Both the position numbers and the translations under genes were made by a program. A stretch of DNA of 59,453 nt, counting the filler, from Diploschistes diacapsis (lineage: Eukaryota), in the NCBI GenBank assembly GCA_023645945.1. It is 4 parts of 4 records of this genome, joined end to end, with 100 filler letters (N's around TTAATTAATTAA, not from the genome) between each part and the next. Parts side by side here need not be neighbours in the genome. Positions count along the whole stretch, not along the records: positions 44,701 to 59,453 come from JALAIB010000587.1; 3 more parts are not named here. The stretch is one strand, 5' to 3'. Shown in pieces: positions 14,807 through 59,453 of the stretch. The notes below the pieces were generated by a model. The model saw nothing but the letters and a program-made list of their open reading frames with translations, was not told where the DNA came from and did no database searches. How positions within the stretch are numbered: the first letter of the stretch is position 1; each line of letters begins with the position of its first letter.

Positions 14807-14906
14807 NNNNNNNNNNNNNNNNNNNNNNNNNNNNNNNNNNNNNNNNNNNNTTAATTAATTAANNNNNNNNNNNNNNNNNNNNNNNNNNNNNNNNNNNNNN
14901 NNNNNN
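14807..14906. other. Artificial contig linker (N44-TTAATTAATTAA-N44)
   Basis: Identical 100-nt construct occurs three times; the 12-mer has stops in all six frames. Confidence 0.99.
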
Positions 14907-29711: not shown

Positions 29712-29811
29712 NNNNNNNNNNNNNNNNNNNNNNNNNNNNNNNNNNNNNNNNNNNNTTAATTAATTAANNNNNNNNNNNNNNNNNNNNNNNNNNNNNNNNN
29801 NNNNNNNNNNN
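29712..29811. other. Artificial contig linker
   Basis: N44-TTAATTAATTAA-N44. Confidence 0.99.
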
Positions 29812-40022: not shown

Positions 40023-40672
40023 TTATCAGAACGTCACAGTGGCAGTCCCAGCTTCTCATGCTTATCAAGCGATCAGATGTGTCTGCTAACATTTTGCGTG
40101 AATGCAAACATTCAGTCTCTATAAGACAGCTACATATAATCTGCAGGAGATACTCGTAACTACTACAGTGGGTACAAAGCCTACCCCATTCAGCTTACTT
40201 AATCTCAACATACAAGTATTTCAACAATGGTCACTCTTCCTCGCACATTCCACAACACCATGCTTCTGGTTCCTACGCGACAAAACTTAACGCTGCATCG
40301 CACAAGGACCTCATTCCATTTGGAGATCGTTGTCCCATTACTAAAGTAACCTAGGTAACTATCCATCTCTCTGTTTCCCTCTGGATTCGATGCGCGTTTT
40401 GTGCGTTGCGCTTTTTGTGCGTACTTTAGTCAGTCCAATTCTATGACGTTAATCCTTCTATATACGACGCTCCTTCATCCCTATTGCGTCTCTCGCGATC
40501 TTTGTTCTAAGGATTGCTCAAGTATTATTCTTCCGTTTATAAAAGCCTGGATTGTTCCTATCTGGGCGTTGACTGCTTCGTGATGGCATAGCAGTGCTTT
40601 GCTTCCAATACTACTGGGTTATACCATCTAGGCCAGCTTTACCAGAATATAACTTACCGAGAGTTTCCCATA

Positions 40673-43600
40673 ATGGACTATTCATCCAATGAGAGCACGC
40701 CAAAGTCCTGGAGAGCAGAGTCGACCCTAACGACACCGCAAATGTCTCCATACTCTATCCACCCACCAGAAATTCAGAATCACGATGAGGTATTGTCTAC
40801 TACTGTTTTGGCAGACAACATTCATTGTGGCTCTTGCGTAAAACACATTGAAGATACCCTCACTGTTCTAGGATCGGACATTCTCCATGTTAGCGTTAGT
40901 GTGGTTAGTCACGAAGCGCACATCCTCCATCAGTCGTCCATCGGTCCTTCCAGCATTTATAACGTTCTTGAAGATGGAGGATTCGAAGTGTCCAGTGCCA
41001 CAACCGTTGATGTCAACGACAAAGTCCGCTTCGAATTTGCACCCAGCGAAGCTCGAGGGGAGTACACTGATGCCTGGCGCCGGGCCTTTCCACCTTTAGA
41101 TTACTCGGACCCTATCTCACACTGCTTGCCCCTTACTACAAAGTCAAAGAAGAGGCGTCATGTCGAGAACTGTACGCTATGTCAGGAGCAAGAAATGCAA
41201 GATTCCCCAGGTCAAAGATCACAATCTGTCAGTACACGCGTGGACGGAAGGCAGGGATCAGGTACTCGGATCGATCAGACAGAAGTTCAAAGTCAACCTC
41301 TTCCTCCCCTAGATACGACTGCGAAAGCTGTTGCTGAGAATATTATCATCCAAAAGACTGGGCAGTTTCAATCCCGATCCGAGCATCTAGGACCTCGGAG
41401 TGACCGCCGCGAATCTGATGATAGTTCAGTGAACCATCATACTATCGGACTAAGTATAGATGGCATGGCCAGCACGTCATGTGTCAATGCTATCAAAGAG
41501 CGTCTTAAGAGTATGGATGAAGTCAAAGCCGTATCAATCGATTTGACATCCAAAAGAGCGAGAGTGGATTATGATGGCCGCAAGGGCTTCGCTTATAGAC
41601 TAGTGGAAATCGTTGAGAATCTTGGCTATCACTCCTCCTTTGTCGAGGAAACTACTACGCACCATGCGCATGCAAGGAATGAGAACTCCAACCAGCCCAA
41701 TTTACTCCACGAAGCGATGCTTAGCATTGGAGGGATGACCTGTGCAGTATGTTCGAATGCCATCATTGGCGGTCTGCAAGAGCTATCAATGGTGAAAGAT
41801 GTCAATGTATCACTCATGACGAACTCAGCAAAGGTAAAATACGAAGGGCAAGGGAACCTTGAAAGTATTGTAGAGAAAATAGAAGATCTAGGCTATGAGT
41901 GTTCCACCATTTCTACCGGAGTCGTGGAATCCGGTGAGGAATTAAGCTTGCTTCGACACGCGAAATCGAGAACACTACAGCTCAGGGTTGAGGGTATGTT
42001 TTGCGAAAAGTGCCCAACGCGAATCCGCCAGGCGCTTGAGGACAGGTTTGGGACGTCAGTACAAGTCCAGAAAGGCTTCGACCTTCGCACGCCTATAGCC
42101 ACAATTTCATACGAGCCCCAGCTGCCGACCATTTCAATACGCACGATTCTGAATCTGATCGATTCTTTGAACCGCGACTTCCACACAAGCGTCTATCAAC
42201 CCCCCTCGATCGAAGGCAGGTCGCAGCAGGTTCAGCTAAAGGAGCTTAAGAAGATTTCTTATAGGCTTTTCTTTTCTGCTCTTGCCGCCATTCCGACTCT
42301 TCTCATAGGCATTATCTGGATGAGTCTTGTCTCTGGGGACAACCCGATACGCAAATATTTCGAGGCGGAGATGTGGGCTGGCAACGTCACAAGGGCAGAC
42401 TGGGCCCTATTCATGCTCGCTACCCCAGTCTATTTCTTTGCAGCATCTGTTTTCCATGTCCGCGCTTTAAAGGAAATTCGGGCTTTGTGGCGTCGAAGTA
42501 GTAAAGTCTCCATACTTCGCAGGTTCTACCGCTTCGGTAGTATGAATCTCCTTATTTCTGCCGGCACAACCGTTGCATATGTATCATCGTTGGCTCTACT
42601 GATTATTAATGCCACATCAGTATCAAGCGGAGCTTCGAGCACCTACTTCGACTCGGTGGTATTCCTGACCTTTTTCATCCTGGCAGGTAGATATATGGAA
42701 GCTCTGGGCAAGTCAAAGGCAGGAGACGCTGTTGCTTTACTTGGGAAGCTCCGACCTCAGCAGGCAATGCTGATTGACCCTTTGGACGAACGAAGTAGGG
42801 TAGAAAGCGGCTCCAAAAAAGACAAAGGTCGAGATGCGCCCCAAGCTCAAACAAATATACGGAGGATTGATTCAGACTTGCTGGAAATCGGAGACACAGT
42901 GATCATCGCCCACGGATCGTCGCCTCCAGCCGACGGTATACTGGTTTCAGATGACGGTCAGTTTGACGAAAGCTCTCTGACGGGTGAATCTAGACCTGTC
43001 AAGAAAATCAGGGACGACCGGATTTTTGCTGGTACAATCAACATTGGCAACCCAGTCCGAATGGAGGTCATTGAGGTTGGTGGATCTTCCATGCTTGATC
43101 AAATTGTCGCAATCGTTCGAGAGGGACAGAGTAAGAGAGCGCCCGTGGAGAGGTTAGCGGATGTCGTTACAGGCTACTTTGTGCCCGTCATTACAGCACT
43201 GGCTATAATTACATTCTTTGTCTGGTTTGCTCTTGGTCAGACCGGTGCTCTCGATCCGAAGTATCTGGGAAACGTCACTGGTGGTTGGGCGTTCTGGAGT
43301 CTAGAATTTGCTATTGCGGTCTTCGTGGTCGCTTGCCCCTGCGCTATCGGTCTCGCTGCTCCGACTGCGCTCTTCGTTGGCGGCGGACTTGCAGCGAAAC
43401 ATGGCATTCTGGTTCGAGGTGGTGGCGAGGCCTTTCAAGAAGCTGGAGATCTGGACGCAATAGTTTTCGACAAGACTGGCACTCTCACGGAAGGTGGTGA
43501 TCTCAAGGTGACAGATTACGAGATACTATCTGAAGACCGGTCCGAAGAGCAGATATGGTCCATCGTTGCGGCCCTCGAGGAAGCAAGCTCTCACCCAATT

Positions 43601-44600
43601 GCACGTGCAATTCTGGACTTTGCTTCCTCCAAACAGAGGTCCACCTCATCAGTCCAGGATATTATCGAAGTGCCAGGTCGCGGTCTCCGGGGCACCTTTG
43701 CTTTCGCACCGCCCTCCAATGTCTCTCCTAGCCTAGACACCAGCTACGAAGCCGCGCTCGGCTCCGAAGCCCTCATAACCTCCATGTCCCCTTCCCTCCT
43801 TCAAACCAACACCTTCGCTGCACAAACCCTCTCAACCTGGAAATCTCAAGCCAAATCCGTCGCCGTTCTCGCTATGCGGCGTCTCCCCCCTTCGTCGACA
43901 CCAGCTACCCCCATCGTTCCCCCAAAGCCTTCTGAAACCCAGGACACAGATACCCCCTGGCAGCTTATAGCCCTCCTCTCGACCTCTGACTCCCCCCGCC
44001 CCTCTTCCCTCCCCACCATCCTCGCCCTACGGGAAAGAGGTATAGAAGTCTACATGCTCTCAGGCGACAACCCCCAAACCGCCACCGCAGTCGGCACCTC
44101 CCTCGGAATCCCGTTAGCCAACATCTTTGCCGACGTGCTCCCCACGGAGAAAGCCGAGAAGATCCGGCATCTCCGCCAAACGCTCGTACCAAAGTCCCCC
44201 CTCCGCCGGCGTCGTCGCCTAGAAGCAGCAGCCACCAGAATCGGCAGCGCAAACGGTGCAGCTGGGACAAGAGTCGCCTTCGTCGGCGACGGCACCAACG
44301 ACGCCCCCGCCCTACTAGCCGCCAGCGTCTCCATCTCGCTGTCCACGGGCTCGCCCATCGCGATGACGTCCTCGTCCTTCATCCTCATGTCCTCGGACCT
44401 GCGCACCATCATCAAGCTGCTGGACCTGAGCAGGCGCGTGTTTAGGCGGATCAAGTTCAATTTCTGCTGGGCGCTGGGGTACAATGTGCTGCTCGTGCCG
44501 ATCGCCGCGGGGGTGCTGTTTAGGGCTAGCGAGGGGGGCTGGATTCTGGGACCTGCGTGGGCGGCGGCGGCGATGGCGGGGAGCTCGATTAGTGTTGTAC
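40673..44600 (+). CDS. P1B-type copper-transporting ATPase, intronless, C-terminus lost at contig break
   Basis: HMA motifs IHCGSC, MASTSC (degenerate), MTCAVC, MFCEKC; TGES, CPC, DKTGT, SSHP, GDGTND, YN and MAGSS Cu(I)-type signatures. Confidence 0.96.
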
Positions 44601-44700
44601 NNNNNNNNNNNNNNNNNNNNNNNNNNNNNNNNNNNNNNNNNNNNTTAATTAATTAANNNNNNNNNNNNNNNNNNNNNNNNNNNNNNNNNNNNNNNNNNNN
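44601..44700. other. Artificial contig linker
   Basis: N44-TTAATTAATTAA-N44. Confidence 0.99.
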
Positions 44701-45887
44701 CGCTTCCTCCTCCCCTCCGCAAAACTCTCCTCCAGCGCATCCCGCTGGTTACTCACCGCATTGACCAGCTGCATCAGGCTATGTTTCCCAGCGGCAATGC
44801 CTCGCACGGGATTGTGCGCCGCCGTCTCGAGCGCGCCGGCCGCGCGCAGGGCCTCGTTGCTCGCATATTCGGCGTCGGTGTTGAAGGTTGTTAGGGTTAT
44901 GTTGCCGTCGTTGGGGCCGGCGGCGGATTTGGCGGAGCGGCCGAGGAGTTGGCGCCGGGCAGAAGGGGGGAGGTTGAGGGTGTTGGCGAGGGAGGAGAGG
45001 GAGGTTGGTGTGGGGGTTGAGCTGGCGTGAGGTTGGAGGGGGGGAGCGGCGATTGGGGGGCTTGAGTCTTCGGTGTCTTCGGTGTCTGGGGCTGGGAGTG
45101 CGGTGGTGGTTGTGGTGCTGGTGGTGGTGTGGATTAGGGGCTGATAGTCGCCTTTTGGGGCTGGTGCCTTGGCTGGTATATCATCGATTGGTGGCGTAGA
45201 GAATAGGGATATTTTGGGTTTCGACGGTGGAGGTGGTTCTGCAGCCGTTTTCGGGGCCGCTTGCGTGATGTTCGTCCCTGCGACGACCGTCGTTGTTGCC
45301 GCGGCGTTGCTCGCCTTTTTCTTCCGCGGCTTCCGGGCTACGGAGAGCGGCTTGAACATCATCGGGTTGCCTACTTTCTTCGGCTCCTCTTTTGGCGTCT
45401 CCAAGATATCCACAATGTCCGTTGCTGCAACGGGCAAACTGGCTTCCGCACCCTCTTTCTCCATGTCATCGTGCACATGCTCCTCATCCGCGCTTGTCTC
45501 CGATTCTGCAATGGGCTCGCGACTGAAACCGACCTGAGCGCTCGTCTTGAGACTCACTCCATTCCCGAGCCCTCTTCCTTTGGAAGCACCGCCTGCTGCA
45601 CCCTTCGCCCCCGCGCCAGACCTCTTCGGCGCCGGTAGCATCGCATTGAAACCCCCGGAGCTAACGACTGTCTTCGCTCTCTTCGCTGGGCGCTCCCCAT
45701 CTCGTTCGCCCTCCAGTGGCTTCGGTGCGGAAGCTTTAGGTAGGTTGATGCGGATTACATGGGGGTTGGAGCGGTCGATCAATCTCTGGGAGCAGTTCGT
45801 AGGGGCTGCTTTCGACGATGGTTGAGTGGTCGGCTTCGACTGGTCGTTGCCTGAGCCTTCGGAATCCGAATAACCTACCAGAGCCAT
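44701..45887 (-). CDS. PRCC-domain (MAD2B-interacting) proline-rich protein, 3' end truncated
   Basis: MALVGYSDSE start, LPAPK, FKPLSVARK, FNTDAEY, GKHSLMQLVNAVSNQRDALEESFAEGRR. Confidence 0.85.
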
Positions 45888-46896
45888 GCCTGTGGCTGTT
45901 GGTGATTGTACTTCTTGCTATAAAATCGCCCACCAGCTCCAGTAAACAACTCCGCAGGTGCTCATATCACCCCAACTCCGTCGGCGTCCATTTACTCCTG
46001 TTATCTCCGGCGCTAGCGGTACGCTAATTATTTAAAGGACGTAAGGCTGAAAAATTATTTTGCGTAAACTTTAAGTTAGGTTCCATATAAATTTGTATGA
46101 GCGTTGTTTTTAAATTTCCAATTATTGTATTCTGGTTTTAACATCTCTCCATACATTTCAGAGCTCTTTTTTCAGAGCTTAATGCGTCGCTTTTCGGGCT
46201 AGGACATCAATATCTAGATAATTACTATGGGAACTAGATATGAGCTAAACGGCTTGGCACACACATTATATGTGAAGGGACGTTTGAGGCAGAAAAGGAA
46301 GTCTTGGCAGTCTTGGCATGAGATAGCCCCTTTCTTATCACGGAGGAAACTTTGAGACGGGAGAATTGGACGGGCGGGATAGAACCTCTAGGCGATGGAC
46401 GATGGACGGGGACTCTTAGACGACCATCTCGGAACTCGGGACGGTGGGAGAGGAATACGAGGTAACAGACGAGGAGCTTTACCATGACGGTGACGGTTTG
46501 TTATCACAAAGCAAGCGGGAACGAAACACTCTCAAACGGTCCATGTACACCTCTTCAACATACCTCTATCTTTTCTCCATTGGCTTGAATTGACTTCCGA
46601 CTCCGAGGAGTAGATAGGCTCGACCATCTCCCTCTCTTCGGAAAAAAACCTAGCGCGCCCTTTGCCTCGTGCCTGAATCCAACGATAGCCGGCGAAACGG
46701 GAGGATCTTGCCTTGCGTCCAAAGTGATCGATTTTCGATGAGCAAGGGGTATTTTCCGCGACTGGGTCTATAGTAAAAAGGTCTTGCTATATATCTGAAT
46801 TCAGGGGCCTCTTAAGTAAGCGGGATCATCGAACTTTGTGAAGTAATCATCCAATCCATTCATTTCTCCTCTTCGTCCATCGTTTCCTCGACCTTC

Positions 46897-47927
46897 CTAC
46901 GATTCATGCCAGTTTAACCAACCCATCCATAAATCTCCCGTCGAGGGAGGGCCTTCTGGTGAGGGAGGGCTTTCTGGTGAGGGAGGACCTTGCTTTGTGC
47001 CTGTATTTTTCTGTTCTGATTTTGATTTCGCTTTCGGTAAGGAAGGGTCTTCCAATTGCCCTACGCCCGAGGTTTTCGACTTCAGTGCAGCGACCCCTTT
47101 CGCTTTCGGTTCGGAGGGACCTTGGCCCCGATCTTTCTGACTTTGCGGCTGTTCCGGACGGGCAGCCTTGTTCTTGGCGCGACGCCTTCTGTCACTTTCA
47201 AGTCGTTTGCTTAAACACGGTCAGTGAATGGAGCAGCTGGGACATGATTGCCACCACTTTCGATATCCCTCCAAGTTTTCTCGTGACTGTTTCTCCCGCG
47301 ATGCTCGTGTCCTCGCCCTAAACATAATTAATGAATGAAAGATCTGAGGTATAATTGCCATCACCGTTCGCCTGCATAGTATTTCTCAGGATCTGTTTCT
47401 CTCAATTTTGCGCGGGATTTTCTTCTATTTTCACTAAACATGATCAGTCAATATGGTATCTCAGATATTCCTGCCATTACTTTTCTTTCTGCTTTTGTTC
47501 CTTAGATCTTAACCGCCTCATTCGACGTCTCCTCTCATACGCACTACTTGGTCAGTAAAGGGAGCATTTGGGAAGGTGTGGTTGTCGTCATCTCTCGCCT
47601 TGGTCTTCATGGGCATCCAAGCTTACTTATCCTTCTCCTTTCAAGCTTACTCATAGCGTGTTTCTCTGAAGCTGGCTGCACTTGAACCTACCTCAGCTCC
47701 GCTGGTACTGGTGCTGCAGCATCGTCCTTTGACCCCTGTTTCCCTGTGTCTGCTCGACGTACTGGTGAGTTCAGTGAGATAAAGGGTAGATAGTCATCAT
47801 AGCACGGCTGATAATCATTGATTGAATTTCTTTCGATGATTCCGTTATTGTGGGCATAGTTTTCCTTTAACTGAGCGTTGACGAGCACGGCGAAGACGGA
47901 GAAGGAAAGTATGATAAGATGCCGCAT
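46897..47927 (-). CDS. Orphan secreted Arg/Lys-rich repeat protein A (5 exons, 246 aa)
   Basis: Exons 47927-47692, 47543-47481, 47433-47365, 47317-47258, 47209-46897; all four introns GT-AG and phase 2, giving an uninterrupted 741-nt frame. Signal-like MRHLIILSFSVFAVLVNA, dibasic PVRR, then AYERRRRMRRLRSKEQKQKENENRRKSRAKLRETDPEKYYAGERARTRASREKQSRENLEGYRNKRLESDRRRRAKNK, Pro/Ser tail, ends DLWMGWLNWHES*. Confidence 0.72.
46943..46992. repeat. 18-bp tandem repeat x2.7 (encodes PPSPE(S/G))
   Basis: GAGGGAGGGCCTTCTGGT GAGGGAGGGCTTTCTGGT GAGGGAGGACCTT. Confidence 0.85.
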
Positions 47928-49291
47928 GTTAAGAATAAGTAGGTGCTGTATCGTCTGAAAAACGTAGAGTGTTTGCGATAGTAAGAATCAAGATAACCAT
48001 ATAGCAATGCAAGGGACAGTGATTATTACTAGGGCGGACTGCTCGACATGACAAATCGAGGCTACCCTGTAAACATAATGTAAGCGCCGGCCCTGACCTG
48101 AATGATTATTCCACCCATCTAAACAGTCCACAATTTTTGAATGGCTTCGATCTTGAGGCTCGGAATCTGATATATTGAAACGAGTGGCAGGCCCAGGCCA
48201 AAGCGTCTGCGCCTAAACTTCCAACTGAGCTGCTTGCCCGCAATTCGCCAAGTCGTCTTCCTGTTGCATCTCTCTTGTGGACCAACGGCTATCTGGCTCC
48301 AGAACGCTAAAGTTGTTTGGGGGTGCAACTGTAGGGTGGAGTTCCGGTGTATTGTCCCAATGATAATGCTATTTGGCGTACGAATTCGAAGACTGCGCAT
48401 AGATGGTTTTGTGCCCATGCGTTTTGAATGAGCAGCAGATGTACCATCAATGCATTGAGATTGGCGCGCCAAAGTAGCTTTGCTTCGGCTATGCTGGGTG
48501 CAGTATACTTCTGTTGCTGTGTCCCTAACGACACATACAGTACAACTTCTGTACTTACCATGCCTTGAATGAGCCGACAAAGTACACAAGCCGGCCACAC
48601 TTTTTCAAGAAGCTGGGATTCCTACCAGTGACGATTAACTTTTGAAGTCACTAAAATCCGTGGAGCCGCATCACTATTCCGCTTGTGGTCCGGTGCTATA
48701 CCACCCTTACAATGAATGTCTGTCGTGCCAACCAACAAGACTCCATGCAGCCATTGCCATTCCTGTCACGGAGGTAGGATGACTGGATGCATGCTTCTTT
48801 CTAACTTTGAAATTTGGTGCTAAGAACACGCCATCCATCTTTCCCTCCTGGCTTCTTTTGACGAGCGCAGCGATACTATCTCAGTCCAAAGAATCACTAC
48901 ACCTGTAACCATCCACGCCCCAGATCAGGCGCGCCTATCAACCTAGTGAGCGATACATCCTCGAAACACGTCATTACCACCGTGCGCGAGATAGGCTTGC
49001 GATAGTAGAGTGGTGAACTCGAAGCCTCGTGCCGTTAGGGCCCGTCAGTCACTGGGAAACTCGAAGGCTTCGAGAGCATCGGCAATGTGAGACTACACTA
49101 CGGATGCAAGCTTGTCACTGCCTACTGATTAGTTTCAAATTTGGTGACACATTGGATGTAAAGGAACGTGAAAATATCTTGAAGCAGTGGGAGGCCATTC
49201 AGCTTTTCAACTTTCCAGTTCGAGACCGGCCCCCATATAATATTATATCTCTTCGTGTTTTATCATTTATTTCCCCCGCACAGCCCCGAAG

Positions 49292-50309
49292 ATGCAGCTT
49301 TTCAGAGTCCTTATTCTCCTTTTTGTCTTGTCTCCTGCCGTCTGGTCGCATCGAGTGCACCATCGCACCGTTTCTGTTCCGGTCGATATTCGCTACGAAG
49401 ATCTTTTACGGCTCCGCGGTGTCGCTCTTGATAGAAATTGCCGCAGCGACGATGCTGAAATGTGCCTGTCACGAAGGGCAGTATCAAGGCTGTTCCGGAG
49501 GGTGAAGTCTCTCCATGAGTGTAAAGATGATGAAGAAAAGGAAAAAGTTCGGTAAGTTCACGAGCGTTTTAGTCTACTTCCAGATTTTCTTTTTGGGTCG
49601 ACGCTGAAATAACCCCAGTGAGCAACGGCGGTGTGCTTGAAAGTACAGCTGCGTGTTATATGCGGCTGAAAAAGGTTAGGAAGTACCAGGCGGCCAGGCG
49701 GCTGTCGGAAGCTGACATAAATCATAGGAATGAAGTCGTTCGGTGAGTTTTTCACCAAACATACATCCGACATCAAGTAATCAGGCGGCTAAAAAGTATT
49801 CTAGGAATTGGCGAAAGGAGGCAAAAGAGAAAGATCCTGAAGGTTACTTGGCAAAGCAAAGGTAGGCTTAAGCATGGCGAGGCCTATCAATTTCTTCAGT
49901 AGCTGAAATCAATTCTAGAAAATATCACAGAAAATATGTGGACAAAAAGAAGCAGGAGGCGGCGGACGAGAAGGGAGGACAGGAAGCAGGCCCGAGAGTA
50001 AAGACGAGGAAGCATAGGGAGGGGAAGATGAAGAGGAAGATTCCAGAGGCAAAGATGAAGAACCCAGAGCAGGAGACCGAAAGCCTGGAGCGCGGGGGGA
50101 AGATCCCGAAACAGGGAATGGAGAGCCCGAAGCAGGCGTATAAAAGTCAGGAGCGCGGGGGGATAAGCGTGGGACAGGGAATGAGGAGCCCAAAGCAGGC
50201 GCATAAAAGCCAGGAGCGCGGGAGGATAAGCCCGGAACAATGCATGAAGAGCCCAGAGCCAAAGCGACCTCGAAAGCCCAACAACCCTCAAAGAGCGCCC
50301 TTTGGCTAG
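49292..50309 (+). CDS. Orphan secreted Arg/Lys-rich repeat protein B (at least 5 exons, about 244 aa)
   Basis: Exons 49292-49551, 49619-49630, 49728-49742, 49805-49861, 49919-50309; all introns GT-AG and phase 2, 735-nt open frame. Signal-like MQLFRVLILLFVLSPAVWS, dibasic LSRR/LFRR, then EEKEKVREQRRNEVVRNWRKEAKEKDPEGYLAKQRKYHRKYVDKKKQ and a repeat tail. Confidence 0.68.
50055..50260 (+). repeat. 63-bp coding tandem repeat x3.3 (21-aa unit M-x-(S/N)P-x-Q...ERG)
   Basis: MKNPEQETESLERGGKIPKQG / MESPKQAYKSQERGGISVGQG / MRSPKQAHKSQERGRISPEQC / MKSPEP. Confidence 0.9.
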
Positions 50310-51497
50310 CACTCGCCAACGGAAAATCGAGTCGTCCTGGATCAACACAAAACCTACACATTCCATTCCAGTCCCATACAATTCCATTTTCGATTCCTAT
50401 GGACTTTATTTTCTGGGAACACCTTGTTCTTGGTGTAATCCACTTAGCTTGGTCGCTCATGAGAATTGCAAAAAGAGGAGAAAACGGGTAAAGAGAACGC
50501 GACGCTGGGGCGCCGTAGTCCAAAACCAGCCTAAGTACTGGACGTACTACCTATGGGAAAGGGGAAGGGGATCATTTAAGACTGAATAATACATAGGTAT
50601 ATATCATAATGGCACGACCAGAATACAAGAGATGTTGCATTGAATCTGTGTGGATAGCATGTTAGCTGGGATGCTACCATTTTGGGCGAAAGTCTTCAGT
50701 GACCCTGTCTAACCTCTATATTTACTACAATGACCCTGTAAACCTCAAATATATTTCAACAAGCCCCCAAAAAATAATATGTTAGATCCAAGTATCCACG
50801 GGACCAACACTCCATGCGAGCCATGCTAGGCCCTTACGCGATTACTTTCAGACGGTTTTCTATCTGTATGTCACCTTGTTTCTTGTTTTTCTTTCTTGCT
50901 CGGTTTCGAGGGACGCTCGTCGGCGCATCATTGAGCTCGTCGGGGAGGAGCTGTAGGTTTGTAATGTCGGCCGGAGGCATGATGTCGGTGTAAAGTAGCG
51001 AGCAGACCGCACGCTGGCGGTGGGAGATCTTTGAGGCAGCGACGTAGTCCATAGTATATATTTCTCAAACAAATCTCACCTTTTCACGCCAAGCCCGCCA
51101 GAAATCCCTTTCTTTTATAGTATCCCGCGGCGTCGATATGCCTGTTCTGATCGTTATTTCTTTAGTGTAGACACGGGGTATCGATGAAGGGATTGTCTCC
51201 TAACAGAGAGAGTATTGAAGCACGAAATAAGAGTTGAATATGGAAATAGAACTTTCTAGGTGGAGAAATTATACTTGACAAGAATAATAAACAGATTGAC
51301 CTGGCTGGCGATTATGTAAAACGTAAACACTCAAGTAAGATTCTAGTGATAATGATGGAATTATCAGCTGAAGCTGAATTACTTTAGTGAAACTTCTATC
51401 TTCCAGTATTGCCATATAAGCCACATCTGATTATCTTCCCACATAAGTATTTATTTCCGCAAAGGTTGCTAAGCCTTGAATAAAGAAATTTTGGGGT

Positions 51498-51608
51498 TGG
51501 TGGCAGAAGTGGGAGTCGAACTCACGACCTTTGAAAAAGGTCCGCCAGCAATTTATTTATATTTATTTTTAAGTCGCTTGAATTTCTTCGAACATATAAT
51601 ATTTTGTC
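51498..51608 (-). tRNA. Degenerate type-II (Leu-like) tRNA pseudogene or tRNA-derived element with genome-encoded CCA
   Basis: Minus strand: long variable stem GACCTTT/AAAGGTC, T-arm GTGAG-TTCGACT-CCCAC, acceptor 3' side TTCTGCC-A-CCA. 5' end GACAAAA is consistent with G>A-mutated GGCAGAA. Possible anticodon stem AGCGA/TTGCT with an AT-rich insert. D-arm not recognisable. Confidence 0.55.
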
Positions 51609-52106
51609 AATATTTTATTCCCTACAGGGTCTTTAAGAGATATACGGAACGAATGATGGAAAGGGGAGGGAGGAATGCACATCAGTGAAAGGTTTCCAGC
51701 CTGCAGTTCATGATGCACGACAACAACGGTTCGGATGCTAATGGTGTGGTTTCAGCGCGCCGTGCATCTGTGGATTGCTGCTATTCCTTTCTATTCTATC
51801 TCTGTCCCAGCCTGGCTGCTGGTGCGCAATGCAAGGCGGAAGCACTTTTGTACAAACAACGCACCACTTTACTTCCCCCATCTTCTGCGCTAGCTACATG
51901 CAATCTACACCACCATTGCTCGCTTGTCAACTTTTCTCCCCCACGGGCTGCTGCACATTCCGCTACACATTTCCCCTTCCTCTCCCCCTCGAGCTAATCC
52001 CATCGCCGTCGTTGTCGCTATCGCCACGCCCAATGCTGCAGGTGCGCGCGCACTCTAGAGTCTTCATCTTCCCTTCACGACGCTGCGAGAGGGAGCAGAG
52101 CCGTCT

Positions 52107-54045
52107 TCAAGGCGTACACCGGCCCATGAATCTCGGGTAAAGACAGCACTCGCGCACCGTGAAGCGACCGCACATCCAGGCCAGGAAGCGCTCAAGGCCG
52201 AGGCCGTAGCCGCCGTGGGGAGAGGTACCGTATCTGTTGGTTGTTAATACAGTTTTTATGAGAGGAAGAGAGGTAGGCAAAGAAAAATGGAAGGAGAGAG
52301 GGAGGGCTGAATGGCTAGCTTTAGCATAGCCAGCCTGAGCAGTTGGACCTCGCTGTTATGAAAGCCAGCAGAAACCCAGCGAAATGGAAATGACCAACGG
52401 GAAAAAAGACTCACTTTCTCTGATCGGTATACCAGTAATATGGCCCCGCCTCAATGCCCTCCCTCTTGTACGCTTGCAACAGCTCCTCGTAATCGTCCAT
52501 CCTCATGCTCCCGCCCACGATCTCGCCCACGCCCGGCATCAGACAATCCACAGACTCCGTCACCCTCGGGTCAGCAGCGTCCTTCTTCATGTAGAACGCC
52601 TTGATTTCGACGGGAAAATGCGTGAGGAATATCGGTCGGTTGATCATGTCCGTCATCTTGCGCTCGGCAGCCTCCGCTATGTCGTCGCCGAATGCGTGCG
52701 GCTGGCCTTCTTCGTTTTTGATATCGTGCTCCACGAGCCAGTCGATGGCTTCCGAGTAGCGCATGCGTTTGAAGGGCCGCTCGGGGACGCGGAAGGAGGG
52801 GTTGAGGTCTGTGATCAGTTTGACCATGTGCGGGTCGGACATGGCGATGTCGATGACGCGGCACATGACGAGCTCGAGGTGGTCGAGGAGGTCCTCAAAG
52901 GTTATGAAGTCGAGTTCAGCTTCGATGTGTGTGTACTCTGACAGGTGGCGCCTGGTGAGCGATTTCTCGGCACGGAAGGAAGGGGCAACACAGAAGACGT
53001 TGCCGAGGGAGGGGAGGCAGGTTTCGAGGTAGAGCTGCGAGGATTGGGTGAGGTAGGCTTGCTGGCCGTAATAGTCGAAGGAAAACAGAGTTGCGCCGCC
53101 TTCGACCTGGGTCTGGACCATGGAAGGAGGCGTCACTTCGAGGCACGAGGGTTTGATTTCTTCGTAAGCTTTGCGAAAGGCGCGGAGGACAGCGGCACGG
53201 ACTTTGAGGACAGAGGAAGCGACTTCGCCGCGGATGACGAGATGGCGGTTGTCGAGCAGTATTTGTGGGCCTGCCTCTTTGGAGACACGGGTTGTAATAG
53301 CCTCTTTATCGCCGGCAGCTTTGCCGATAACTTGGAAATAGTCGGCGTGCAGTTCGCGGTCGTCAGGGGCGTGTTGTCCAGGCGGTACTTCCCACATCTC
53401 GCCGTATACTTCTAGCGAGGACCCTTGTGTCAAGGTCATTGCGTCGTATGTCTGAGTCAGTGGTCCCGTAAGCACGCATTGCAAGTAACCATAGCCGTCC
53501 TGTAGAGTGAGGAAGATGACATCTTTCTGTGGCCGTAGACGATGTACACGCCCTCTCACCCGCACCCGAGATCCGCGCATGTCTGGGTCCTCCGGACCTT
53601 CCTTGCCTTTTCTGAGCTTCACGCTCTTGGGATCTTTCTCGCCGAGAGTCATGGTCATGGCCCGGGGTAGGCTTGGGTCGAGCTCAATCTTCCTCTTCTG
53701 TGCCTCCTGCAACACGACCGCCCTGGCCTCGGCCTCTTGCTTTTCTCTCAGGGCGAGCTCCTTTTGCTTTGATTTCTTCTTCAAATGCTGTTCATAGAGA
53801 GTGTTGGCCTTCTTCATTCCTGATTTCGCCGGCGCTTTCCATTCTAAACGTGCTGCTGGGTCTCCATCTTCACTGACCGGGCCGGTTTCTGACTTGCGCG
53901 TGCGATACGAATGTCCCTCCGCCTGTGGTCGCGCGATAAAAGCGTGTAAGAGGGACCTATATGGCTTTTCTTGCGTTCCGTCAGCTGTTGCGTCGTCCTT
54001 GCCGACATCTTCATCGATGTATACCTCCTTTGCAGGAGCAGCCAT
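52107..54045 (-). CDS. DED81: Cytosolic asparaginyl-tRNA synthetase (2 exons; intron 52234-52414)
   Basis: [25 protein letters not shown] (OB fold), [77 protein letters not shown]. Confidence 0.97.
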
Positions 54046-54160
54046 TGTGCGTAGCCGAATGCTGAGTCGAGCCGTTTGGAAGGTCAAATGCAGAGACCAA
54101 AGCCGGAAGATGCTCAATATAGGTGCTGAGAATCATTGGAACATGAATATAGTGGATGAG

Positions 54161-54186
54161 TGAGTCATGCCAGACAGGTTGAGTCA
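54161..54186. promoter_or_regulatory. Two Gcn4/CPC-1 response elements (TGAGTCA) upstream of AsnRS
   Basis: TGAGTCA at 54161-54167 and 54180-54186. Confidence 0.65.
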
Positions 54187-54356
54187 ATAGGATTCTATTG
54201 TGTTTCGCATCAATGTTAAATGGTGGGGGATGTTCAGCCACCACCACTGTACAGCCACAGCCAAGCCACAGCACATAGACAAGCTTTGTAAGGCTGGAGC
54301 ACGTGATATGGCTGATGCTCGTCCAACCAACCGCTTTCTGATATCTGATATCGACA

Positions 54357-54417
54357 TTTCTTCTTCTTCTTCTTTTCTTCAGCCTCTTCCTCTTCCTCTT
54401 CTTCTTCAACCTCTTCA
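54357..54417. repeat. TTC/CTT-rich simple repeat
   Basis: (TTC)n/(TCTTCC)n pyrimidine tract. Confidence 0.8.
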
Positions 54418-55956
54418 AGGTTCCATTTGCCAGTGCAACCTTGATCTACCCTTGGAAGAAGATGAACACTGTTAGTACGCTTAGACTTGCACCTCGAAAG
54501 CATCCAATGCTAGCTGCATCTGCGTACCGAAGGCCTGTGTGCAGGGGCACTCCATGTCTCCAACGGGCTCCTTGTGTCTAAAGGCGTCTATGTATTTCAA
54601 GGCCTTTGTGTGCCTGAAGCCGCTGAAGCCTCTACCGCCGTGACGCCTTCGAAGTCGAACTGCCTTGCAGGAGCCTCGCCCTTGCACCGTCAATCCAGGA
54701 GGCGACACCCAGATGGCCTACGTCTCTGCTGCACACAGCACACAGCCCTGGATAGTACAAATGGTCGATATAAACATGAGTCTTTTCTGCGTGTGTTGCT
54801 GGCTATATTGCGATACTCTGACATAGCGGTAACCCTATTCAAGTTGACCGCATCTCCGTTGCGATTGTGATTTGCCCCTATTCCTGCTTCATCCTGCCGC
54901 CCCCTCCAAGATCACGTGCTAACGCCCTGGCTTGAAGTTGTTGAACATAAAAGTACCGTCATGGAAAATGTAGAAGCAAACATCTGATGGTAGATCTGTC
55001 TCTCTAGCAAGAGTGTTTTGCTCACTGTTGGGGACGAATATGTCGATACTTTGCAGTCACTCACAGTTACGGCCTCGCTTAGCTCCTAAGCTGTCCCTCT
55101 TACTCTGAACCCATCTTCCACTCTTTCATTCCATTAGCAAGCCGTTCTCAAGCTTGACCTCTTCCATTCATCTTGGCTTGCAGTCATACTACTACCTTGT
55201 CGTTCTGATACTCCTCATTCGCATCTCCTGGAAGGCGCTTGCATCCGTGATCGTCTCTCTTGGCTGCAACTCTATTCTTTCCCCGCTTACCAGACAAGCA
55301 AGATTACAAGCCCGAAAAGTGCTGGCCCTTCTCTCCATCTTCTAAGAACTTGATCAAGCAGGAACCATCCAAAAGACCTCGCTTGCAACCTGAGACTAAC
55401 CAGTCCTCTTCATTGACAAGTCACTCCTCGAGAAGTACCGAAATGTAAGTGACCGTGTTCCTCTTTGCTGCTCTTCTCACAGAGCAAACCAGTAAACAGT
55501 CTCAAATCAAGCCCATTTCCTTTCAACCCTACCTCAATAAATTAACGAGGTCCGGGATATCCGAGTCTAGAGTCACAGTCAGCTCTGTTGCTTGCATCGC
55601 GGATCAACACGGGTCGCTCTCCAGCATCACCAGGCTTAGAGGCAAGATCCTTCCTACCTGAACGTTGAAAGCGTCAGAGACAACCTTCTTTCCTACCTCA
55701 GCGTTGGAAGCGTCAGCCTTGTCCTCAACAGCAGACTCAGCAACCCTGTCGAGAGGTCTTTCACCTTTCTTCTCGCCTTGGACGCTTGTTCCAATCTCGG
55801 TCAAAGACTCATCTTTGAAAGCCTCCCAAAGCGCCAGAAGCCTTGGCCTCGGTTTTGTCTGTGGTGACAGTGTTCATCTTCGCCTATTTCTCGGACTTCG
55901 GTAGCCTTGGACCTCGATACGACCAGTCAGCAGGCTAAACATAGTTCCAGTTCAGT

Positions 55957-58038
55957 ATGTCTTCGCCTACCGGTTCCGAAAGCTCAGGGTCCGCTGGAGG
56001 AGTGCCACTCAATTCAATTGTCGCTCGGGAAAAAACCTCTACAAGCAAAGCCTCCACGGGCTCCAATCAATCTATTTCCGAAACCACTGCAGTTCGGAAG
56101 CAAAGCGGATCAAGTACCGACGGCTGGGAAGTTATCTCGCGAGGGCCGTGCAGCGGTTATCGTGACCAGCGCCAAGTCTTAGCCAGCTCTGGCGGCTCCT
56201 TTGAACATCACCACCCTGACAAAGGGCGCACCTCTCCTCTTGTTGACAAAGCGAACCTGCAAACAGCGAGCTCTTTCTCCACCGCATCCAAAACAGGAAC
56301 CAGGGCCACGTCTCTGTCCACAGAAACTCGAAACAGAGCCCTCTCCGCAGCTCAGTCGGATTCTTCCCTCCCTGGAGGTATTCATCCCCCTCCCTGCACC
56401 CCAGAGACCTACCACTACCAGGGGGAGGGTGAGGTACCAGATGCCGTGAGTTTTGCTCTCGACAATGTCAACGCCCAAGATGCACCAAGGGAAAACCTCA
56501 TGTCGCCTGATGCCTTCCGCAAGGCAGCGATGCTCCGTGCCGCAGTAGGTGCTATCGGTACAGAACTCAATAAAGACGGCCTTTCCGAGACAAAAGTTGA
56601 GGAAGTTGTCGGGCGAGCGTCTTTGAACTCTCCCGCAACCAGCGAGGAGGTTCTCCGCCAAAACGAGCCTACCATCGAACAGCCTATCCCTCATGTCCCC
56701 TCTCGGTTTTTCAGTTCGGAGGAGTGGCAGTCTCTGCATGCCAAATTCGAAAAGAGACAAAAGGATACTCTTGTAGACGGAGGTACAGAAGGAGCAGATA
56801 CTGGTGTATGCCATGGTGAGGAGTTCTATGAAGAGCCAGCAGGCTTAAAAGAACATGATGGTGAGGTCAAACATCCGCTACAGAAACTTCAATCTCGTAG
56901 CTCTTCGACAGAGGAGGAGAAGGACTTTGGGGTTGAACTCACCCGGGAAAAGAAGAGATCCTCGATATCGGAACCAGAGGGGGTTGCCGCAATATGGGGT
57001 GAGAGCAGTGTTGAGAGTGTAAAGTCACAGGGAAGCGGTTATGTCCCACGAAGCATGGTAGCTGGCACAGTTCTCCCAGAGAGGAAAACCGTAGACGCAG
57101 AACCTTTACGGGGCGAACACAGCAAGACATTCCACGCCGAACACGTATCGCACGCAAGTCGTTCCACGATGGACTCAATCGAGGCTTTGTCCTCAGGTGC
57201 CCCCGGCTTGGGCCATATCGGCGCTGACTACGAACCTCAACAAGATAATACTGCTGATCCAGAAGCCCGCTTGCTTTCAGGTGCCACACAAAAAACTTCC
57301 GTCCCACCCACTTCTCCATCCACCTCTTCTACCAGCGACTCTTCTCCATCCAAGGATTCTGACGGTGGTGTCCGACTTTCTCCATTTCGCCGCAAGGCTT
57401 CCACTACTTCTACTCTCGACACCTCTTCTTCAAAAGAGTCCGACGGCGGTGTCACCCTTCGACCGACCTCTCGGATCCACCTTGGTCACCACAAGCCCTC
57501 CACCCCCTCCTCCGAGCTTGCCGATAACTCGCCTTCGAAGGAATCTGACGGCGGTATCATCCTCCGTACAATTTCGCTGACCCATATGGAAGGCTCCAAG
57601 TCAACAATTGAGCCGGAATCAGCTTTGAAACTTACAGCCGCGAATTTACGGCGTCTCCCTGGTACTGCCCGACGTCCTGAGAGTGACTCTCTAGTGAGCA
57701 TTTCGTCCGGAAGGCCTGGGAAAGTCCGCAAGATGTCCACCGACCCGTTCGGCAATATTGGCGACTCCATCCTGACGCCGGAGAAGCTAGATGAAGAGAA
57801 GGGCAAGGGCAAAAGCGAGGCTACTGGTATGGACTTCGATACTGGCGCACATAAGGGCAAGGGCAAAAAGTCCACCACACCAGTCTTCAAGCTGCCAATG
57901 CGTCCGGCTGTCAGCGACGATACTACTGGAGGTCAGGGCTCAAGCAAGAACGCTCCAACCAGTTTCGCAGGAGAAAAGAAGGGTGAGGATGGGGGCAAAG
58001 AGGGATCGGTCACTGGGGGTGAAGCTCATTCCAAGTGA
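55957..58038 (+). CDS. Hypothetical Ser/Thr/Glu-rich, probably disordered protein (693 aa) with three SK(D/E)SDGG(V/I)xL repeats
   Basis: 2082-nt uninterrupted ORF with ATG start; no globular domain recognised. Confidence 0.75.
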   Translation: MSSPTGSESSGSAGGVPLNSIVAREKTSTSKASTGSNQSISETTAVRKQSGSSTDGWEVISRGPCSGYRDQRQVLASSGGSFEHHHPDKGRTSPLVDKANLQTASSFSTASKTGTRATSLSTETRNRALSAAQSDSSLPGGIHPPPCTPETYHYQGEGEVPDAVSFALDNVNAQDAPRENLMSPDAFRKAAMLRAAVGAIGTELNKDGLSETKVEEVVGRASLNSPATSEEVLRQNEPTIEQPIPHVPSRFFSSEEWQSLHAKFEKRQKDTLVDGGTEGADTGVCHGEEFYEEPAGLKEHDGEVKHPLQKLQSRSSSTEEEKDFGVELTREKKRSSISEPEGVAAIWGESSVESVKSQGSGYVPRSMVAGTVLPERKTVDAEPLRGEHSKTFHAEHVSHASRSTMDSIEALSSGAPGLGHIGADYEPQQDNTADPEARLLSGATQKTSVPPTSPSTSSTSDSSPSKDSDGGVRLSPFRRKASTTSTLDTSSSKESDGGVTLRPTSRIHLGHHKPSTPSSELADNSPSKESDGGIILRTISLTHMEGSKSTIEPESALKLTAANLRRLPGTARRPESDSLVSISSGRPGKVRKMSTDPFGNIGDSILTPEKLDEEKGKGKSEATGMDFDTGAHKGKGKKSTTPVFKLPMRPAVSDDTTGGQGSSKNAPTSFAGEKKGEDGGKEGSVTGGEAHSK

Positions 58039-58584
58039 AAGAGTAAGTGATTTGATCTGGTGTCTTTAAAACCCAGCTAACTAGCTGAACAGTACTTCAT
58101 GGATTTGTCTGTAGGGAGAACGGGGACTCGAGATGAGCGAGTAAGAAGAAACAAACGGCATGGATAATGGATTCCTTTGCTCTGTGCCCAACCTGCTGCT
58201 ATCTAGTAAGTAGTAGTTAGATAGGTACAAATCCATTATCTGGCCGCCAGAAGTATCGTGATAGCCATGGGTGATAGTAGCCACCATCACGTGACCTACA
58301 ATGGGGGATTCTAACATGGAGGTCTGCTACTCACTCGTAAATAGCTTTATTTCCCCACAAGTCTGCCCATGCAGATTTTTCTACTTACTCTAGATATCTA
58401 CTGACTTGAAGCTTGCAAAAAGCTCCGGAACCACCTGCTTGAGTGAGCTCTGCGCGTGTTAGCAAAGAAGGGGGAAGTAGGAAAGAAAACACAAAACGAC
58501 TGGGAGCTTGTGGTGACTCCAGCTAGATGTTTCCACAATGGAAATCAACCTACTGCCTGTTTATCAACAGCTTTATGTACAACG

Positions 58585-58602
58585 ACACACACACACACAC
58601 AC
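58585..58602. repeat. (AC)9 microsatellite
   Basis: ACACACACACACACACAC. Confidence 0.9.
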
Positions 58603-58989
58603 GCGCGATAACTTTGCAGAGCATGTAAACCATTCGAGAGAAACGGGGGCGTCCGGGCCCACACATCCCCCAACCCAGCATATGTCTCGTTCCAGCCAAA
58701 CGACATGGCCAACGACAGCCCCATCCTGGCTGAAAAGCAATTTCTCTCCTCCCCCGCTCTCCTCGAGTCGCGCATAACTCGGGCCGAGGCCCAGGAAGGC
58801 GAGGGCTTCCGTGCCATCTTTTTTTTTCCCCGTTCCCTTGTTTGGTTGGGGTAGATAGATACAGCGACAGCGTTTCGACGGAAAAACATCATAACTCTGC
58901 CTGCCTCCCGGCCCCACACGTTAGGGCTTGTCTTATTCTGCCTACTATAAAATTGTGTAATATATTTAGTGGCGCCCTAGTAATGCATT

Positions 58990-59453
58990 CTGCTTAGTTC
59001 GCTATGGCTCTATTAAATACTTAAATTTCTATATAATTTACGTATAAATGTATATCACTTATAAAAATACGTAGAACTATATAAAATTAAATATATAATA
59101 AATAAAATTTAATTATTATTATAATTATAAAAATTATATCGTAATAAAAAATAAATATTAAAATATTAAAAGATAATTAAAATACTTTAAAAATAATTTA
59201 AAAATATATTTTTAAATTTTTTATAATTTTTTTTATATCGTGTTTTTTTTTCGTTTATTATATTTTTTTACGAATCGCGATAATTATATTATAAATTACG
59301 CGGTCGCGCGTTATTATTTTTTTTATATCGATATTACGCGTAATAAATATCGTATCGCGATCGCCGGTTCGTTAATAACGATAACGATATTAAATAATAT
59401 TTTTAAACGTTCGATTAAACGTTGAAAAATGATTTACGTAAGATTACAACGCG
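58990..59453. repeat. Extremely AT-rich hypermutated (RIP-like) repeat at contig end
   Basis: Long stretches nearly devoid of G/C; surviving C and G are almost all in CpG. Confidence 0.8.

Follow-up and report, generated by a model that had tools for sequence, protein, structure and literature searches.

What is encoded by the fragmented open reading frames (ORFs) that lie between the PRCC and AsnRS genes in a 59,453-nucleotide (nt) window from Diploschistes diacapsis (assembly GCA_023645945.1; the window is the whole stretch of DNA that was analyzed)? We read them as a head-to-head pair of intron-rich genes, A on the minus strand (47927..46897) and B on the plus strand (49292..50309), whose start codons are separated by 1364 nt. 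The best reading, to which we give a rough probability of 45%, is that both are real, divergently transcribed genes and that they encode a lineage-restricted pair of putatively secreted, Cys-poor polycations that would bind polyanions. The analysis establishes the gene structure and the coding signal as well as the one relative and the composition of the proteins; from there on, we infer expression, secretion, processing, and target.

For the gene models, both strands were read and GT..AG joins enumerated; as stricter donor and branch-site rules missed the proposed introns, relaxed rules were applied. A extends from the ATG at 47927 (minus) to the stop codon TAG at 46899-46897 and B from the ATG at 49292 (plus) to the TAG at 50307-50309, with genomic spans of 1031 and 1018 nt, respectively. 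Spliced at GT..AG sites, A comprises exons of 236/63/69/60/313 nt and encodes a predicted protein of 246 amino acids (aa), or 247 aa if a donor 3 nt downstream is used. B comprises exons of 260/12/63/57/391 nt and encodes 260 aa, or 256 aa if the 12-nt micro-exon is omitted. A preliminary description of this locus had reported two head-to-head genes about 1.36 kb apart, fragmented in the ORF track and made intact by eight GT-AG introns. The exact ends now agree with this arrangement, and the predicted splicing restores both frames beyond shuffle expectation; the reported length of 246 aa holds for A, while about 244 aa was too short for B.

Each gene contains four short introns of 47–148 nt. 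All eight are in phase 2 and carry a [CT]T[AG]A branch-like site 8–12 nt upstream of the 3' splice site; reference introns inferred at three ORF junctions elsewhere in the window have a similar look, with phases 0, 1, and 0. In B, donors 1, 3, and 4 fit GTRNGY, and the tentative donor 2 is GTGTGC. The micro-exon of B has its own branch-like site and acceptor, and the model that includes it reached a global score of 255 against the relative of B introduced below (KAI4151453.1), compared to 234 without the micro-exon and 207 with the alternative acceptor 49644. In A, the donor of exon 4 was picked by the similarity of GTGGTGGCAAT to GTGATGGCAAT of intron 3. The parts of both genes and the region between them are as follows.

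47692..47927, minus strand: exon 1 of A, 236 nt, ending in phase 2, with A at −3 of the ATG and a codon log-odds of 0.103 (best of six frames); residues 1–18 of its protein are signal-peptide-like (V-N-A at −3 to −1) and are followed by a neutral to acidic segment, the sole Cys (C42), and RR at 57–58
47544..47691, minus strand: intron 1 of A, 148 nt, donor GTAGGT, branch-like site ACTGAC 8 nt from the 3' splice site
47481..47543, minus strand: exon 2 of A, 63 nt, phase 2-2, an Arg-run module with four consecutive Arg
47434..47480, minus strand: intron 2 of A, 47 nt, weak donor GTAATG, branch CTGAT 10 nt from the 3' splice site
47365..47433, minus strand: exon 3 of A, 69 nt, phase 2-2, with the motif ETDPEKY
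47318..47364, minus strand: intron 3 of A, 47 nt, weak donor GTGATG, with only a branch-like site, TTAAT
47258..47317, minus strand: exon 4 of A, 60 nt (63 nt with donor 47254), phase 2-2, with ENLEGY
47210..47257, minus strand: intron 4 of A, 48 nt, weak donor GTGGTG, branch CACTGAC 11 nt from the 3' splice site
46897..47209, minus strand: exon 5 of A, 313 nt including the stop codon, with a second Arg run and then a Lys/Ser/Pro/Gly-rich tail; an 18-nt repeat (2.7 copies, 46943-46991) encodes (S/G)PPSPE units
47928..49291, no strand assigned: divergent upstream region shared by A and B, 1364 nt
49292..49551, plus strand: exon 1 of B, 260 nt, ending in phase 2, with 47% identity to the Diploschistes protein; residues 1–19 are signal-peptide-like (V-W-S at −3 to −1), and LSRR (59–62) and LFRR (67–70) lie inside a cationic amphipathic stretch
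49552..49618, plus strand: intron 1 of B, 67 nt, donor GTAAGT, branch GCTGAAAT 11 nt from the 3' splice site (49552-49679 under the three-intron model)
49619..49630, plus strand: tentative micro-exon of B, 12 nt, phase 2-2
49631..49679, plus strand: tentative intron 2 of B, 49 nt, donor GTGTGC, branch GCTGAAAA 10 nt from the 3' splice site
49680..49742, plus strand: exon 3 of B, 63 nt, phase 2-2
49743..49804, plus strand: intron 3 of B, 62 nt, donor GTGAGT, branch GCTAAAAA
49805..49861, plus strand: exon 4 of B, 57 nt, phase 2-2, with EKDPEGY (8 of 10 residues as in the relative)
49862..49918, plus strand: intron 4 of B, 57 nt, donor GTAGGC, branch GCTGAAAT
49919..50309, plus strand: exon 5 of B, 391 nt including the stop codon, Lys-rich and then a tandem repeat, with KRPRKP-NP at the C-terminus; a 63-nt repeat (3.3 copies, 50055-50259) encodes 21-aa units with SPK/SPE

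When every ATG was tried under the relaxed splice rules, spliced ORFs reached at most 744 nt in A and 810 nt in B, lengths that none of 200 dinucleotide shuffles per region reached (shuffle maxima of 687 and 798 nt); the longest spliced ORFs of the antisense strands were 267 nt (A) and 387 nt (B). Among 34 other tiles of the window, which may contain real genes, one exceeded the 744 nt of A (786 nt) and the next reached 711 nt. Codon usage was scored with a table derived from nine ORFs of the window that have Pfam support (own log-odds 0.10–0.29), which gave 0.085 for A and 0.153 for B in frame and −0.21 to −0.28 out of frame. The proposed frame had positive log-odds in nine of nine scored exons and was the top of six frames in eight of them, and the best-frame score was negative in six of seven introns; this test is partly circular, since the way it is built favors frames without stops.

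Searched exhaustively with HMMER, 1.84 billion representatives yielded a single match to exon 1 of B at E ≤ 0.001, namely KAI4151453.1 (LQ340_003481, P0001), a hypothetical protein of 337 aa from a Diploschistes diacapsis metagenome-assembled genome. Three exons of B match this protein separately and in order: exon 1 with 39/83 identical residues (47%, E 5e-16), the KDPEGY exon with 8/10, and the tail with the C-terminus with 35/90 (39%, E 2e-12). Because three separate exons are matched in order, B is, on these alignments, a conserved protein-coding gene. KAI4151453.1 resembles B in its signal-peptide-like start with MQLF, in a pair of LxRR sites, in the KDPEGY module, in the SPK/NPK heptads that make up its tail, and in the end with KRPRKP-NP; it differs in length (337 vs. 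260 aa), in a longer Glu/Arg/Lys helix, and in an extra Ser/Gly-rich stretch. The heptad period x-K/E-S/N-P-K/E-x-G can be followed in the tails through residues 262–325 of KAI4151453.1 and 50055-50259 of B, where a 21-aa unit equals three heptads; we take this motif to resemble SPKK-type DNA-binding sites or sites of proline-directed kinases.

The occurrence of the relative in Diploschistes, taken as another genus, would make B lineage-restricted rather than strain-specific, and in the libraries searched here the family is so far known from this one other lichen-fungus protein. A word-index search with KAI4151453.1 matched only the protein itself, and neither the A nor the B protein was present in the searched protein libraries, although the AsnRS of the window was. 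A metagenome scan with the exon 1 alignment of B yielded 590 pattern-matching stretches, none of which was confirmed as a relative, and KAI4151453.1 had no usable match in the Protein Atlas. Five exon translations of A and B as well as KAI4151453.1 matched no Pfam family, KAI4151453.1 had no sequence match in the PDB, and no long or terminal repeats were found around the two genes. With neither Pfam nor PDB matches, nothing points to the transposon ORF or known intracellular protein that the preliminary description had allowed for.

A and B are probably distant paralogues from an old inverted duplication, as suggested by the motif exon, the intron phases, the mirror-image layout, and the alignment of the whole proteins. 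Exon 4 of A shares 9/16 residues with the motif exon of KAI4151453.1 (E 0.001; 0/300 shuffles reach this score), and exon 3 of A resembles the motif exon of B, exon 4 (1/300), and KAI4151453.1 (10/300). The DNA itself carries an inverted repeat of 28 nt with 71% complementarity, whose arms are 47373-47400 and 49826-49853. These DNA arms, together with the shuffles for exon 3 and exon 4, speak for the reality of the common motif claimed previously. A DPExY-type mini-exon and the intron phases are common to A and B, the mini-exon also being found in KAI4151453.1, and each gene is split into five exons by phase-2 introns, with its motif exon at 527 nt (A) or 534 nt (B) from the ATG. The whole mature proteins aligned collinearly, with Smith–Waterman scores of 101 for A and B (shuffled 56 ± 9) and 117 for A and KAI4151453.1 (shuffled 68 ± 10), with 0/300 shuffles reaching either score in a test that ignores local composition.

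Gene A also retains traces of how it grew. Its introns 2, 3, and 4 share 65–72% identity (0/500 shuffles), intron 2 being 72% identical to intron 3 and 65% to intron 4; exons 2–4 share 57–61%, which is near random for such an alignment, with the pair of exons 3 and 4 standing out (5/500). The three exons (63/69/60 nt) differ by multiples of three, and the adjacent introns are steady at 47–48 nt. The likeness of the introns and the exon length steps indicate that blocks of about 110 nt, each an exon with its intron, were copied in tandem, and that the coding parts then diverged faster than the introns. A profile search of the 59-kb window found no further copy of the three similar introns and therefore gave no indication that a mobile (introner-type) intron had spread.

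The same features could be read differently: A might be an inverted copy of B that is decaying and in which the picking of GT..AG sites happens to restore a frame, with B alone being functional. Three of the four donors of A are off consensus, its exon 1 is without a detected relative, and the near-random likeness of exons 2–4 next to introns that are 65–72% alike would suit a dead copy. However, none of the 200 shuffles produced an equally long spliced frame, all five exons score positive in frame while the antisense strand reaches no more than 267 nt, the exon lengths step by three next to introns of constant length, and the N-terminus retains an intact signal-peptide-like segment. We regard decay of A as unlikely.

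The predicted proteins share a characteristic composition. A, B, and KAI4151453.1 each possess a single uncharged N-terminal core of 14–17 residues with small residues at −3/−1; its 12-aa Kyte–Doolittle mean is 2.9, and no later segment exceeds 0.34. The signal peptides proposed in the preliminary description thus show the usual layout at both N-termini, as judged by rules of thumb. Past the N-terminal segment, the proteins carry net charges of +18 (A), +28 (B), and +38 (KAI4151453.1), and with isoelectric points of 10.0–10.2 for A and B (10.0–10.3 including KAI4151453.1), the proteins are as polycationic as had been described. The Cys-containing pro-region ending in RR fared less evenly: the RR is present, and the Cys part comes down to a single Cys in A and one Cys conserved between B and KAI4151453.1, out of four and one, respectively. 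In these latter two proteins, two LxRR sites eight residues apart are conserved inside a cationic amphipathic stretch (hydrophobic moment 0.65 in B and 0.53 in KAI4151453.1; charge +5 and +6). With an aliphatic residue at P4 and Arg at P1, LSRR 59–62 of B (L59..R62) and LLRR 57–60 of KAI4151453.1 (L57..R60) fit the rule for Kex2-processed pro-domains and are candidate cleavage sites. The proposed Kex2 sites are in this way retained for B and its relative, whereas A has SPVRR and no Leu at P4.

The classical monopartite nuclear localization signal (NLS) follows the consensus K-K/R-x-K/R. The C-terminal KRPRKP(-NP), conserved in B and KAI4151453.1, contains a match, which starts at residue 242 (256-aa model) or about 246 (260-aa model) of B and at residue 324 of KAI4151453.1. 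A contains RRRR runs and no match to the consensus. Both repeat tails carry SPK/SPE units. In A, the basic block includes Pro/Gly-free stretches of 39, 18, and 20 residues. The last 12 residues of A (46900-46935, minus) are Trp-rich, with three Trp within eight residues, in contrast to the hydrophilic remainder of its tail, and B and KAI4151453.1 have no such segment; this end might serve as a membrane-interface or carbohydrate-binding tag.

Structure prediction for KAI4151453.1 by AlphaFold2 from the single sequence (predicted template modeling score, pTM, 0.22) suggested helices at residues 47–60, 63–92, 96–114, and 122–167, with the remainder disordered. Over the helices, 10-residue block means of the predicted local distance difference test (pLDDT) ranged from 50 to 98, peaking over residues 131–160; the pLDDT of residues 23–50 was below 50. 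The DPEGY motif is placed at the start of the last helix.

Under the preferred reading, A and B belong to a lichen-forming fungus of the Graphidaceae or of a group close to that family. Each gene begins with the exon for the predicted signal peptide, continues with two or three mini-exons that are symmetric in phase 2, and ends with the exon that bears the repeats. The N-terminal 18–19 residues would direct the protein into the endoplasmic reticulum (ER) and would then be removed, and in B, a leader of about 40 residues would perhaps be cut off by Kex2 at the conserved LxRR. The exported product would be Cys-poor, partly helical, and otherwise disordered, with a net charge of about +18 (A) or +28 (B), and would act where fungus and partner meet by binding polyanions, i.e., nucleic acids, acidic wall polysaccharides, or membranes. 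Should it enter a partner cell, KRPRKP might direct B to the nucleus; nuclear targeting in the partner is speculation. Of the lineage-specific effector or antimicrobial family put forward in the preliminary description, the reality of the genes, the signal-peptide layout, and the charge have gained support, and the effector role stays putative.

Several observations weigh against this reading. The splicing of both genes is a prediction, introns 2–4 of A have off-consensus donors (GTAATG, GTGATG, and GTGGTG), and intron 3 has a weak branch site at best. The signal peptides are candidates judged by rules of thumb, and any target of the proteins is putative. Many further dibasic sites would expose the proteins to Kex2 throughout, and a model of exon 1 of B from the two-sequence alignment was all-helical and poor (pLDDT 53.9, pTM 0.18). 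No annotated Thelotrema protein matched exon 1 of B, with the Thelotrema proteome included in the HMMER library. For exon 1 of A, a word-index search confirmed none of 37 candidates among longer proteins, a metagenome scan gave 430 pattern-matching stretches without a confirmed relative, and the Protein Atlas held no usable match. Exon 1 and the tail of A showed no BLASTP similarity to B or KAI4151453.1, and when the basic blocks alone were aligned, 4 and 9 of 300 shuffles reached the score, local composition being what the whole-protein shuffles leave aside.

Secretion need not imply a partner as target. A and B could be self-directed extracellular protectants or matrix proteins that act on the wall or thallus matrix of the fungus itself, either as hydrophilins resembling late embryogenesis abundant (LEA) proteins or as a polysaccharide glue. 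Hydrophilins are defined by a Gly content above 6% and high hydrophilicity, and lichens tolerate drying. With a grand average of hydropathy of −1.58 to −1.66 and Gly contents of 6.1% (A), 5.8% (B), and 7.4% (KAI4151453.1), the proteins lie at or near these thresholds; they are disordered or helical without a fold, they stem from a lichen fungus, and the tail of A is rich in Pro, Ser, and Gly and has a Trp-rich end. The strong positive charge, the Arg runs, and the conserved KRPRKP are, however, atypical of LEA proteins; Pfam gave no match, LEA or otherwise, and no 11-mer repeats were found. We consider a protectant an improbable account of the pair.

The preferred reading of secreted polycations can also be extended into the partner cell. 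A and B would then be translocated effectors specific to lichen fungi, whose polycationic helical modules and SPK-type tail bind nucleic acid in the algal nucleus, with a module number that the fungus could vary by duplicating or skipping the symmetric phase-2 mini-exons. The coding sequence that outpaced the adjacent introns would, in this extension, be the mark of an arms-race-like process or of partner matching. We consider it quite unlikely that the proteins go this far.

More doubtful still is that the proteins are not secreted at all and that the N-terminus is a signal anchor holding them at the nuclear envelope or the ER, so that the basic part would bind RNA, ribosomes, or chromatin in the cytosol or nucleus of the fungus itself. 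The residues right after the core are basic (H/R) in B and KAI4151453.1, which favors a cytosolic C-terminal side, and the composition and NLS-like motifs are as in nuclear or nucleolar proteins. On the other hand, uncharged cores of 14–17 residues are short for a membrane span, small residues occupy −3/−1 in all three proteins, and the N-terminus is among the best-conserved parts of B compared to KAI4151453.1.

Least probable is a role as precursors of cationic antimicrobial peptides, cut by Kex2 at RR/KR and directed at thallus bacteria or competing fungi, for although [KR]R occurs at ten positions in A and five in B, the cationic amphipathic stretch is conserved in B and KAI4151453.1, and lichen fungi are predicted, in the account given in 10.64898/2026.09.03.749242, to possess extensive sets of secreted antimicrobial proteins that are specific to their lineages, the amphipathicity of A is low throughout (mean moment 0.16, maximum 0.38), the KR of KRPRKP precedes Pro, and the repeats of A and B are without flanking dibasic sites and hence outside the definition of Kex2-processed repeat proteins as given in PMC9769878.

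Among known systems, the SP7-like effectors of arbuscular mycorrhizal fungi appear to be the closest architecture by analogy. As described in PMC11333574, their signal peptide is followed by imperfect repeats of hydrophilic character, several members have an NLS, and a conserved intron precedes the repeats. The repeat units number 6–11, with a conserved island closing each unit; the family is reported there only from Glomeromycotina and acts in the nucleus, as experimentally shown. A and B resemble this family in their candidate signal peptides and hydrophilic repeats, B also in its match to the NLS consensus, and both in belonging to a mutualistic fungus and in that divergent sequences are recognized partly by gene structure (PMC11333574). 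Both also have a phase-2 intron right after the exon for the predicted signal peptide and leader, a possible counterpart of the SP7 intron. In contrast, A and B have two to three modules per gene instead of 6–11 units and hence lack the SP7 signature, and they come from a lecanoromycete close to Thelotrema and Diploschistes and not from Glomeromycotina. The exhaustive HMMER search with exon 1 of B, with its one match in total, returned no SP7-like protein, and neither did the word-index search with KAI4151453.1. While nuclear action of SP7-like effectors is experimental (PMC11333574), A and B are reasonable, putative candidates for symbiosis effectors.

Effectors with a Kex2-processed pro-domain (K2PP), e.g., SnTox3, carry an aliphatic residue at P4 and Arg at P1 of the processing site according to 10.1101/2020.05.27.120113. 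B and KAI4151453.1 resemble them in the signal-peptide-like start and in a low-confidence leader (pLDDT < 50 in the relative) ending in LxxR/RR with Leu at P4. The mature domains of K2PP effectors are folded and often Cys-rich (10.1101/2020.05.27.120113), whereas the part of A and B behind the site is basic, unfolded, and interspersed with more dibasic sites. Aphid bicycle genes, as portrayed in PMC9168663, likewise encode secreted proteins with small internal exons that are nearly all in phase 2, and their structure outlasts sequence similarity; they have at least 5 exons (mean about 17) and CYC motifs. All three internal exons of each of our genes are in phase 2-2 and measure 12–69 nt. The bicycle genes are unrelated animal genes, and the likeness is an analogy only; the three internal exons of A and of B are far fewer than the minimum of 5 and the mean of about 17 given for bicycle genes, and A and B have no CYC motif. 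Kex2-processed repeat proteins (KEPs) share with A and B a signal peptide, putative in our pair, as well as repeats and dibasic sites, and are described as having several near-identical cores, each flanked by Kex2 sites (PMC6339444, PMC9769878). Neither the 21-aa units of B nor the 6-aa units of A are flanked by KR/RR, which sets them apart from KEPs.

We know of no lichen effector whose action inside a partner cell has been demonstrated. In our literature searches, no description of the A/B family was found, and ordinary gene finders would likely miss both genes because of their 12–69-nt exons. An in-depth lichen secretome study reports many predicted secreted proteins without a domain or characterized match, most of these without a confident structural model (10.1101/2024.08.16.608140); A and B offer a concrete, testable pair of such domain-less proteins. 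If they are secreted and taken up, they could become an entry point for lichen biology, as SP7 was for mycorrhiza research; if not, they would still provide a clean example of gene growth via tandem exon-plus-intron duplication.

Regarding the genomic setting, Pfam matches support several ORFs of the window, among them Med12, MUS81, a copper ATPase (40592-44599), PRCC (44703-45917, minus), and AsnRS (52414-54132, minus); the latter two are the flanking genes named previously, and the accessory island proposed between them stays putative. The AsnRS ORF shares 84% identity with its counterpart in Thelotrema lepadinum, a member of the same tribe as Diploschistes, and the next named matches are from other lecanoromycete lichen fungi. 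Blocks of N at 14807-14906, 29712-29811, and 44601-44700, each composed of two 44-N runs with 12 bases between them, split the window into four stretches, each about 14.7 kb long. PRCC, A, B, and AsnRS lie on one piece (44701-59453); the copper ATPase, on the far side of an N block, need not be linked to PRCC. The designation of A and B as a system was an overstatement, the shared 1.36-kb upstream region being the only link seen between them.

This upstream region contains a TATAAT that ends at 49241, about 50 nt upstream of the ATG of B, and direct repeats at 49011-49027/49053-49069 (82%) and 48806-48819/49133-49146 (93%), within 300–500 nt of that ATG. The short repeats and the TATAAT are possible cis elements of a divergent promoter. 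A 161-aa ORF of the region had no Pfam match, and neither had five spacer ORFs. In the 2.1-kb spacer between B and AsnRS, the G+C content drops to 36% at 51201-51700, compared to 45–50% around it, next to ORFs without a Pfam match. Finally, a 697-aa open frame at 55945-58035 (plus; no Pfam match) reaches a codon log-odds of 0.258 and is probably an uncharacterized gene downstream of AsnRS.

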